Part shown: piece by piece, positions 1-1,469 of the stretch
How the letters are laid out: each line of letters opens with the position of its first letter
Position numbering within the stretch: position 1 is the stretch's first letter
DNA from: Ignavibacteriota bacterium
GTDB taxonomy: Bacteria > Bacteroidota > Ignavibacteria > UBA10030
Length of the DNA: 49,782 bases
NCBI GenBank assembly: GCA_003819715.1
Contig: RPQN01000018.1
Span: 1 to 49,782 of the forward strand
Reading direction: 5' to 3'
Translations under genes and position numbers: made by a program
The notes under the pieces: model-generated
The model's database searches: none
Told to the model about the DNA's origin: nothing
The model's input: only the letters and a program-made list of their open reading frames with translations

Positions 1-74
1 AACATTCCACTAATTACAACAGATATTCTGACGAGGTTAAGGAAAAGATTACTGTTGAAGAATTGGTTTTTCAT
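1..74 (-). CDS. 5' end of integron cassette ORF (truncated by window edge), probably secreted or membrane protein
   Basis: Starts 40 nt downstream of the attC R' box on the minus strand. AAGGA RBS at 86-82, ATG at 74, open to the edge: MKNQFFNSNLFLNLVRISVVISGM... Confidence 0.55.
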   Translation of the reverse strand, partial: MKNQFFNSNLFLNLVRISVVISGM

Positions 75-114
75 AAAGTAATCCTTAAATACTATGAATG
101 TTTTTCGACACACT

Positions 115-311
115 GCCTAACGGCATGCGCATAAGCTGCGCCGTGACCAAGTTTAATGTTACACAAAAAGAAATGAGTTCACGCTATCAACTAAATTAAG
201 CTGCAACCAACCAACGAGAAACTGAATAGTAAATAATAAAAACGTAAAACCACCACCCGCAATGCTTAACGTACCCACGCTTATTGCGTCAGCTTCATGC
301 GCTGGTTAGGC
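115..311 (-). mobile_element. Integron attC site (197 bp)
   Basis: Minus strand: R'' GCCTAAC (311-305), spacer CAGCG, L'' CAT[G]AAGC, TG[A]CGC ... GCGCA, L' GCTTATG, spacer, R' GTTAGGC (121-115). Arms pair with two extrahelical bases 6 nt apart. Confidence 0.85.
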
Positions 312-406
312 AGAAACCCACAAACAGCACGATATTGGTTAATAACTTGTACTCATATTTGTTAGTTGTCGATTTGTACTTCTCAATAATTAACGTTTCT
401 GCCTAA
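121..406 (-). mobile_element. First integron cassette, no intact ORF
   Basis: Runs from the G/TTAGGC crossover at 407/406 to the crossover at 121/120. The cassette start GTTAGGCAGAAAC (407-395) is the exact reverse complement of GTTTCTGCCTAAC (317-305). Confidence 0.7.
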
Positions 407-455
407 CTATGTATTAGATAGAATTAGTCTATATAGCATGCATATTAGACATTAA
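401..455 (-). mobile_element. attI-like site
   Basis: Minus strand TCTAATACATAGTTAGGC resembles the attI1 core CTAAAACAAAGTTRRRY. TCTAATA occurs again about 31 nt upstream. It lies between the intI remnant and the first cassette. Confidence 0.7.
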
Positions 456-511
456 TTATAGATAAAATATATAATATTGAGTACCATTGACAAGGAACAC
501 AGGGCTCGACT

Positions 512-775
512 ATGGCACTGAAATTATTGGATCAAATGCTCGATATTGTGTACATAAAACACCCGTGCACCAGAACTGAAAATGTTTGCCTGTAATGGAT
601 TAAGTGATTTATTCTTGTTCTCCATAAACGCCACCCTGTCGAAATGGAAGAGAATGAAATCCGCCGGTTCTTGAACTACCTCGCTGCGAGCAATATCTTT
701 CTTCTTCAACTCAAAATCAAGGCCTTCATACGAATAATTTATTTCATTACGTAATTTTAAATCCAAACTATTAAC
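512..775 (+). pseudogene. intI: Degenerate 5' fragment of integron integrase
   Basis: Hand translation from ATG 512: MALKLLDQMLDIVYIKHPCTRTENVCL*WIK*FILVLHKRHPVEMEENEIRRFLNYLAASNI, frameshift at ~699, then SSSTQNQGL. Matches the IntI N-terminal pattern KLLDQ..KHYS.RTE..Y..WIKRFI.FH.KRHP.EM...EI..FL..LA....S.STQNQAL. Stops at 593 and 605. No catalytic domain. Confidence 0.88.
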
Positions 776-890
776 GTTGATGCTGCTGATGCATAAATCA
801 AACAAAAAACTTACATTGAATATGACTTCACCAGAGGGGCAGCTCAAAATCATTTTAACAAATTATACACCTCAAATGCACGGAGCACAT

Positions 891-1469
891 ATGCGTAAAA
901 TTATTTGCACGATTATCGTTATTGCACTCACAACGTTCCTTTTCACATTCGTATCCGCACAGGATAAAAAGCCGGCCGAACCACCCAAGGCCGCAGCAGG
1001 TCCATCTCAGGAATTATTATGGGGCTGGAACGACATCGGCAACAAGCTTATCGCTATGGCAGAAGATTTTCCTGAAGAAAAATACGGTTTTAAAGCCCAG
1101 AAAGACGAACGGACGTTCGGTGAGAATATCCTGCATGTTGCATACGATAACAATATTATGATCAACGCACTCAAGGGAATATCAGTTCGAATTGCCTGGA
1201 ACGAAGATTCATTGCAAAAACTTTACGTGACGAAAGAATCCATCGTGAACTATCTGAAGCAGGCAGTGAACGATGGCGCAGAACTTATCAAAGCACAAGG
1301 CGACAGCGGATTAACAAGCGAGTTTAAATTTCCATGGGCCAATATGATGGCCCACCGTTCTTTCGGCTGGATGGGGACTCTTGAACATTCGGGCGAACAT
1401 TATGGACAACTAGTGGTGTATTATCGCGTCAATGATATGATACCACCCGCTTCTCGCCCGAAAAAATAA
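891..1469 (+). CDS. DinB/YfiT-family protein with signal peptide
   Basis: Motifs AEDFPEEKYGFK, RTFGENILHVA and EHSGEHYGQLVVYYR. GGAG RBS before ATG 891, which begins a signal peptide (MRKIIC...VSA). The ORF-track start at 777 looks too early. Confidence 0.8.
   Translation: MRKIICTIIVIALTTFLFTFVSAQDKKPAEPPKAAAGPSQELLWGWNDIGNKLIAMAEDFPEEKYGFKAQKDERTFGENILHVAYDNNIMINALKGISVRIAWNEDSLQKLYVTKESIVNYLKQAVNDGAELIKAQGDSGLTSEFKFPWANMMAHRSFGWMGTLEHSGEHYGQLVVYYRVNDMIPPASRPKK

Follow-up and report, generated by a model that had tools for sequence, protein, structure and literature searches.

At the left end of the contig referred to here as C41, which in its entirety is the stretch of DNA that was analysed (the window, 49,782 bp), there lies the head of a chromosomal integron array, comprising the beginning of a disabled integrase gene (intI), an attI region, a single attC site and the first cassettes. 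The contig belongs to a MAG (bin label G000; the congeneric genomes are labelled G001 onward) that has 396 contigs totalling 4.03 Mb at 47.7% GC, with a completeness of 94.8% and a contamination of 4.26%, and the first 800 bases of C41 have a GC content of 36%. A single public run contains the stretch, and its label is freshwater sediment metagenome. The features at this end of the contig are as follows.

1–120, minus strand: start of the second cassette, which begins TTAGGC (120 to 115) and has an open frame running off the contig end
115–311, plus strand (the recombinogenic bottom strand): attC, 197 nt, defined by covariation, by its nhmmer family and by the MFE fold
406 to 121, minus strand: first cassette, 286 nt, ending in the 197-nt attC
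312–400, minus strand: body of the first cassette (89 nt), with no ORF of at least 30 aa outside the attC
401–511, no strand assigned: attI and putative intergenic promoter region, defined by homology to the sequence preceding an intact intI (G002:C4)
512 to about 745, plus strand: intI relic of about 76 codons, N-terminal SAM-like domain only, defined by profile matches and by alignment to the 5' ends of congener intI genes
593–595, plus strand: in-frame TAA at codon 28 (CAA in the G002 homologues, i.e. both its relic and its intact copy)
605–607, plus strand: in-frame TGA at codon 32 (CGC in the same two G002 homologues)
684/685, plus strand: 1-nt deletion, and hence a frameshift, by comparison with four homologous attI-intI 5' regions
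891–1469, plus strand: DinB_2-family gene (PF12867, E 8.4e-6), the first gene beyond the relic

The frame that opens at 512 matches the Pfam domain Phage_int_SAM_4 over its residues 5–60 (E 2.8e-10, 40.9 bits against a cut-off of 27), while its best NCBIfam match is to the integron integrase family TIGR02249 (E 1.8e-8, positions 1–73 of 315), at a score of 34.1 bits that falls below the curated family cut-off of 265, as is to be expected for a remnant of 76 codons. Neither of the remaining two frames of this stretch matches any Pfam or NCBIfam family. The earlier note had read an IntI-like frame from 512 with stops at 593 (TAA) and 605 (TGA), a frameshift near 699 and no catalytic domain, and had made its reading depend on IntI similarity over 512–775; that similarity is present, and both stops are borne out by translation. 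The frameshift also exists, its actual position being 15 nt away from the one proposed, at 684/685, as given by a five-way alignment of C41 with four homologous attI-intI 5' regions; past the deletion, IntI-like reading resumes in frame 3 (SSSTQNQ). When all six frames of the MAG were searched with TIGR02249, just one match came up on C41, at 524–757 (model positions 1–78, containing two TAA and one TGA), and, again as the note had it, there is no catalytic domain anywhere on the 49.8-kb contig. Cut down to about 76 codons, and carrying two stops and a frameshift in addition, the gene makes no catalytic product here. In DNA terms, positions 399–744 are 71–75% identical to three congener stretches, of which one (G002:C4, 74%) leads directly into a full-length intI scoring 439 bits; homology to the congeners declines beyond about 733–745, and the relic presumably arose through deletion of the 3' part of the gene. 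A 109-aa ORF antisense to the relic (524–853, minus strand) has no Pfam hit and is in all likelihood a fortuitous frame of AT-rich DNA.

Beyond the relic, the DinB_2-family gene falls within a segment that is missing from G006 at the corresponding locus, so that it may have come in with the integron. Congener genomes have several paralogues of this gene (there are, for instance, three matches in G015 and two on a single contig of G006). Gene order in C41 agrees with that of G006 and G011 only from about 1548 onward, where there is a RidA-like gene, and no synteny was found between the flank of the relic and those of the relic or intact heads of congeners, implying that the various heads occupy different loci.

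Between the relic and the first cassette, positions 401–511 share about 70% identity with the sequence that precedes the intact intI of G002:C4. At their left-hand end is a crossover box of the GTTRRRY type, GCCTAAC at 401–407 (i.e. GTTAGGC on the cassette strand, 407 to 401), lying 105 nt from the ATG; 3' of this box come an imperfect inverted CTAAT and then a series of conserved blocks (TTAGATAGA...TCTAT...CATGC...TTATAGA) that extends up to the ATG at 512. The similarity of this region to the other heads starts precisely at CCTAAC. In its sequence, therefore, the stretch has the attributes by which an attI is recognised, adjoining intI on the upstream side and containing a crossover box, so that the attI-like core that had been proposed here is upheld. 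Sigma-70-like hexamers facing in both directions can be picked out (446–475 on the plus strand, 493–466 on the minus strand), but since their number in 401–511 is no higher than shuffling would give (five, against a shuffle mean of 4.9, for a consensus that may differ from that of this phylum) both promoters must be considered putative; nor are these hexamers kept in the G002 homologues of the five-way alignment.

The attC is well defined by its paired arms. Its R-box halves, GCCTAAC at 115–121 and GTTAGGC at 305–311, are perfectly complementary, and the L-box stem formed between 127–144 and 275–296 leaves two bases bulged, T at 286 and C at 293. The structure was examined in an alignment of 19 sites, seven from G000 and 12 from four congeners, that were chosen for having a full-model nhmmer match and no large insertion, partial and long-insertion copies being left out. 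For these, RNAalifold returned an L-box stem with two single-base bulges, one T and one G, both in the 3' arm as read on the plus strand; over the R- and L-box structure as a whole 92.5% of cells are paired, with nine of the 22 pairs compensatory. None of 500 shuffles gave pairing as high as this, and sliding the structure along the alignment gave at most 45.5%. The arrangement is thus the R''-L''...L'-R' symmetry, with extrahelical bases (the bulged T and G columns) on one strand, that distinguishes an attC, and the coordinates 115–311 assigned to the site beforehand prove to be exact. An MFE fold of the site likewise forms both stems (R and L), has two one-base bulges in the 3' arm, and leaves a central region of about 125 nt poorly structured. 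Taken over the whole site, the DNA fold energy is not more stable than that of shuffled sequences (z –0.98 and –0.82), so that support for the structure comes from covariation in the stems and not from folding energy. One departure from the family must be pointed out: position 293 is C, while the bulged base is G in 18 of the 18 other aligned copies, and this particular site may therefore itself be impaired. The paired bases flanking 293 have also changed, yet remain complementary.

In attC sites the bulged bases mark the recombinogenic bottom strand. Here they lie in the plus-strand 3' arm, so that the plus strand is the bottom strand and cassettes should accordingly read on the minus strand. 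In 18 of 20 inter-attC intervals on the other array contigs of the MAG, the strand of the longest ORF was indeed the predicted one, and bulge polarity and ORF orientation together indicate that the cassettes read leftward on the minus strand, away from attI; this is the divergent intI-attI-cassette layout of a canonical integron, as it had been taken to be in the earlier note. As regards other functions of the site, a 39-aa frame within it (159–278) has no Pfam hit, and a Bacteroidetes-type promoter in its centre (TTTG plus TAnnTTTG) was considered and set aside, a proper pair being found in only one of the 19 sites; a lone motif resembling TAATTTnG recurs among the long forms of attC. Rfam gave no match in the first 4.5 kb of the window or in three array contigs, apart from one at chance level (E 0.65).

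An iterated nhmmer search that started from 115–311 found 31 copies of this attC family on 11 contigs of the MAG, that is, 30 copies on 10 contigs beyond C41 (these copy numbers being those of nhmmer only); within each contig they share one orientation, and their spacing is 0.5–2.5 kb. The family occurs in 16 of the 16 genomes of the genus, at 72–86% identity. Two structural scans of the MAG for attC, one based on duplex energy and the other on anchored stems, were discarded because their hits did not exceed those in reversed-sequence controls (for example, six real against 12 control hits at a score of at least 10), and they missed most of the known copies, many sites having nested insertions; fuzzy searches for arm motifs were noisy genome-wide and served only to place arms within the array contigs. 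On C233, C260, C199, C203 and C54 (L012–L017) the sites are modular, with common R and L arms surrounding nested hairpin inserts that differ from one to the next, and they range in size from about 63 nt (C233, 3233–3295) to about 330 nt (C260, 4929–5259). Among the types of insert are those represented by CCCGATAAATCGAGG and GCCGAAGGC, as well as repeated TTGTATCAC and TTGTATCGC motifs around small hairpins. It could be that the conserved but poorly folding centre, present in sites of 150–200 nt or more and in all 16 genomes, has some function beyond recombination.

The 89-nt body of the first cassette contains repeated TTGTACT motifs, similar to the TTGTATCAC motifs in attC insert modules elsewhere in the MAG. 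The second has a frame on the minus strand, 3–113 and open at its 3' end, that would give 24 aa from the ATG at 74 or 37 aa from the GTG at 113; a tblastn search of the MAG and of a set of further loci gave no homologue for it. Assemblies from the public run (Logan) include a 565-nt contig that covers positions 1–123 and then continues for 442 nt past position 1. A further Logan contig (depth 6.5, with only 26 letters on its shorter side, which is under the reliability guidance) joins 311 to 401, omitting the body of the first cassette; this joint differs from the product expected of excision between attI and attC.

Given that the window is the whole of C41, the array exits the assembly and not merely the window, and where it might re-emerge is suggested by gene order in G006. 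There, 317 nt separate the orthologue of the RidA-like gene from a pair of genes, one glycoside-hydrolase-like and the other of the MBL fold, and the orthologues of this pair in the MAG are on C180, where they are followed by a periplasmic-binding-domain gene and then, as far as the contig end, by three attC-bounded cassettes in matching orientation (RraB-like, aldo/keto reductase, and DUF362 with a T9SS tail, this being a cassette protein with a T9SS sorting domain). Going by this synteny, C180 is probably the far end of the array headed by C41; the adjacency of the glycoside-hydrolase-like and MBL-fold genes to the RidA-like gene is seen in only one of 15 congeners, and for this reason the link to C180 is one that we infer. 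That the array leaves the window, as had been anticipated, is supported, its continuation being deduced from the 442-nt extension and from C180. The condition in the earlier note that there be further attC sites to the left receives an indirect answer from these two observations and from the 30 copies on 10 other contigs.

Crucial to any interpretation is whether the genome has another integrase, and a search for an intact intI, such as the earlier note had suggested, turned up a copy on C183 that has all of its catalytic residues and is cut by the contig end. It occupies C183:8449–9285 and encodes 279 IntI residues, scoring 391.6 bits against the TIGR02249 cut-off of 265 over model positions 36–314. 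The protein aligns to residues 40–317 of VchIntIA (2a3v; E 8e-77), and it keeps the conserved recombinase motifs and the insertion specific to IntI. The contig end removes some 35 N-terminal residues together with attI, so that the integrity of this gene is established only in part. Over their 94-nt overlap (629–721 in the relic), the relic and the 5' end of the C183 intI share 87% identity, which makes the latter the closest known relative of the relic (the intI genes of congeners reach 70–80%); the nearest named IntI loci are those of Bacteroidota, Ignavibacterium and Melioribacter MAGs, at 54–68% identity. The downstream flank of C183 is syntenic with the intact intI locus of G006, and its GC content resembles that of the genome.

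Two further attI-like stretches are present in the MAG, at 629 to about 700 on C44 and at 2477 to about 2560 on C358, the similarity again beginning at CCTAAC, so that G000 has three attI-like heads (C41, C44 and C358) in addition to the head of the C183 intI. No recognisable intI was found beside the stretches on C44 and C358 in the six-frame TIGR02249 search. In each of these extra heads (L010, C44 293–700; L011, C358 1813–2560) an attC with GTTAGGC at its end is followed by a first cassette gene, which is encoded on the minus strand, and then by CCTAAC with some 60–80 nt resembling the attI of C41; about 742–760 on C44 bears a weak resemblance to the region of the intI start codon. Both adjoin REP-like hairpin repeats of the form GTCATTCCC...GGGAATGAC (C44 1030–1140, C358 2700–2771), one of which lies at a contig end, so that such repeats may further explain the breaks in the assembly.

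Decay of intI is not confined to this MAG. TIGR02249 matches above the cut-off in 20 of 41 genomes (G000 and 40 relatives), and truncated or broken heads were found in several:

G002:C3, truncated head, model positions 1–91
G001:C66, truncated head, model positions 1–114
G008:C16, broken head, gene in pieces
G005:C14, truncated head, model positions 1–138, behind five attCs

In each of G000, G002 and G005 there is both an intact intI and a truncated intI that heads an attC array. The stub in G002 is a 364-bp attI-intI' copy that is 98.6% identical to the intact head, has its boundary exactly at CCTAAC and has different cassettes beyond, whereas that in G005 is only 70.7% identical to the intact intI; evidently recent duplication and old divergence both occur. 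The presence of several divergent integrons per genome seems to be common in the genus. In G001 (L130, L131, L045) there are two full-length intI genes of 66–68% mutual identity, together with a third, partial one that has an attI-like stretch.

The reading that best accommodates these observations, and to which we would give a probability of roughly 0.8, is that C41 carries the orphan head (the proximal end) of a chromosomal integron array whose local intI is dead, but whose sites are still substrates for the resident C183 integrase acting in trans. Positions 1 to about 745 constitute the head, with the cassettes extending leftward on the minus strand from the attI at 401–511, and the local intI has shrunk to its first 76 codons or so and gained two stops and a frameshift; on this scheme the head would no longer be autonomous, and the integrase of C183 would act in trans on both the attI and the attC of C41. 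Since the C183 intI looks intact and the attI is conserved, excision and insertion could still be catalysed in trans, and as far as can be judged from sequences the head of C41 can probably be served in this way. A hint in the same direction comes from a congener, in the form of the 364-bp duplicate in G002. It is also conceivable, though rather unlikely, that in this genus one integrase serves several heads as a general arrangement, the attI-intI' stubs being not mere corpses but secondary docking sites that result from integrase-mediated splitting or duplication of arrays. What hints at this is again the G002 copy, along with the several heads of G000, the pairing of intact with truncated intI in G000, G002 and G005, and the three intI genes of G001.

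The earlier note had supposed instead that the array is frozen and turning into a CALIN (an attC cluster lacking an integrase). So far as the local integrase goes this holds, the gene being dead, but with an IntI on C183 the MAG is not integrase-less, so that “frozen” does not follow. A truly frozen array, for which the cell has no functional integrase at all, so that its cassettes are fixed and its sites are decaying into a CALIN, must nevertheless be weighed, and we regard it as unlikely. Besides the dead local intI, it would account for a first attC without the bulged G and for a first cassette without an ORF; moreover the C183 intI is incomplete at its contig end, and C183 could be a binning error, stemming from a co-binned strain, in a MAG with 4.26% contamination. 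Against this, the GC content of C183 is like that of the genome and its flank is syntenic at the level of the genus, the C183 gene is closer to the relic than is that of any congener and has its catalytic motifs intact, and the attI of C41 is well conserved.

A quite different concern is that the relic may be an artefact of assembly or binning, reflecting either strain variation or a chimera in which the true head, that of C183, has been joined to unrelated chromosome. The MAG has 396 contigs, C183 breaks within intI exactly at its overlap with the relic, and repeats inflate the Logan depth over the attC (98–132 in three of its four bins and 24 in the fourth, compared with 6.9 for unique sequence). 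This explanation is nonetheless very improbable. A 6728-nt Logan contig produced by a second assembler matches positions 297–1600 without a mismatch and so runs from attI through the relic and on into the DinB_2 gene (the run probably being the MAG's own sample, so that the agreement tests the assembler and not the data). Alleles would be much more alike than 87%, both stops and the frameshift are in sequence that is unique, and the same truncated-head architecture recurs in congeners (G002:C3 and G005:C14). That the frame at 512 instead encodes the N-terminal part of a tyrosine recombinase other than IntI (of Xer or phage type), beside an inverted repeat of an unrelated element, is barely credible: the remnant does retain just the generic SAM-like domain, without the IntI-defining insertion and the catalytic domain, and scores only 34 bits with TIGR02249, but its homologue in G002:C4 runs into a full-length IntI, the C183 intI is 87% identical to it, and the repeat has every hallmark of an attC and bounds single-gene cassettes.

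How an orphan head served in trans would compare with known systems can be considered first in relation to the superintegron of Vibrio, a sedentary chromosomal integron with a homogeneous attC family, the VCR repeats. The resemblance lies in a conserved, lineage-specific attC family that has many copies per genome and is found genus-wide, and in cassettes that are mostly single genes in one orientation. The attC sites of the MAG differ in being longer (about 150–200 nt, with nested hairpin modules taking some to about 330 nt) and in having a large, poorly self-complementary centre, and in G000 there are several heads, with differing intI decay, within one genome. Sites of 200 nt or more, nested up to about 330 nt, are at or past the default size limit of attC finders, and with long sites and with arrays shattered in short-read MAGs the integron content of such lineages is probably under-counted. 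As for the integrase, VchIntIA (PDB 2a3v) is matched by the C183 protein in both insertion and motifs, while the copy on C41 retains only the part that precedes the catalytic domain, and that broken.

CALINs were defined by Cury et al. (2016; PMC4889954), and according to the passages of that paper dealing with them half occur in genomes that encode IntI, and rearrangements may split integrons. C41 is similar to such cases, and to integrons with an intI pseudogene, in that it has attC cassettes beside a decayed intI in a genome that encodes IntI elsewhere. It is not a complete integron, which would require a functional intI with a catalytic domain and the IntI-specific insertion; a functional integrase is absent nearby, as in a CALIN, the relic being the only integrase match on the 49.8-kb contig, and one attC is present before the contig end, the definition of a CALIN being two or more. 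For sedentary chromosomal integrons, with large arrays of similar attC sites, the size given by Cury et al. is more than 19 attC sites; the MAG has 31 copies of a family found throughout the genus, dispersed over 11 contigs and at least three heads. As compared with CALINs as described there, C41 has kept its attI and the first 76 or so codons of intI. The pseudogenes recorded in those passages, near 15 of 279 CALINs, were sought with C-terminal profiles (IntI_Cterm and PF00589, at more than 50% coverage), a screen that would miss a relic such as that of C41 in which only the N-terminal part survives; since such relics escape it, the published 95% of CALINs without a nearby pseudogene may, on this account of the screen, be an overestimate.

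To judge from the nearest named IntI loci and from the T9SS sorting domain, the taxonomic setting of C41 fits that of the integrons counted in Ignavibacteriae, Chlorobi and Bacteroidetes by Néron et al. (2022; PMC9024848), whose passage on these groups is limited to counts and has no description of the attC family of the MAG or of truncated heads. The locus, from a Bacteroidota-like MAG of freshwater-sediment origin, belongs to a known kind, that of CALINs or integrons accompanied by an intI pseudogene, and what is distinctive about it is the retention of attI and of an N-terminal stub of intI, together with its family of long attC sites. It leaves the general view of integrons unchanged, while providing a well-documented case of integron decay in a poorly studied lineage.
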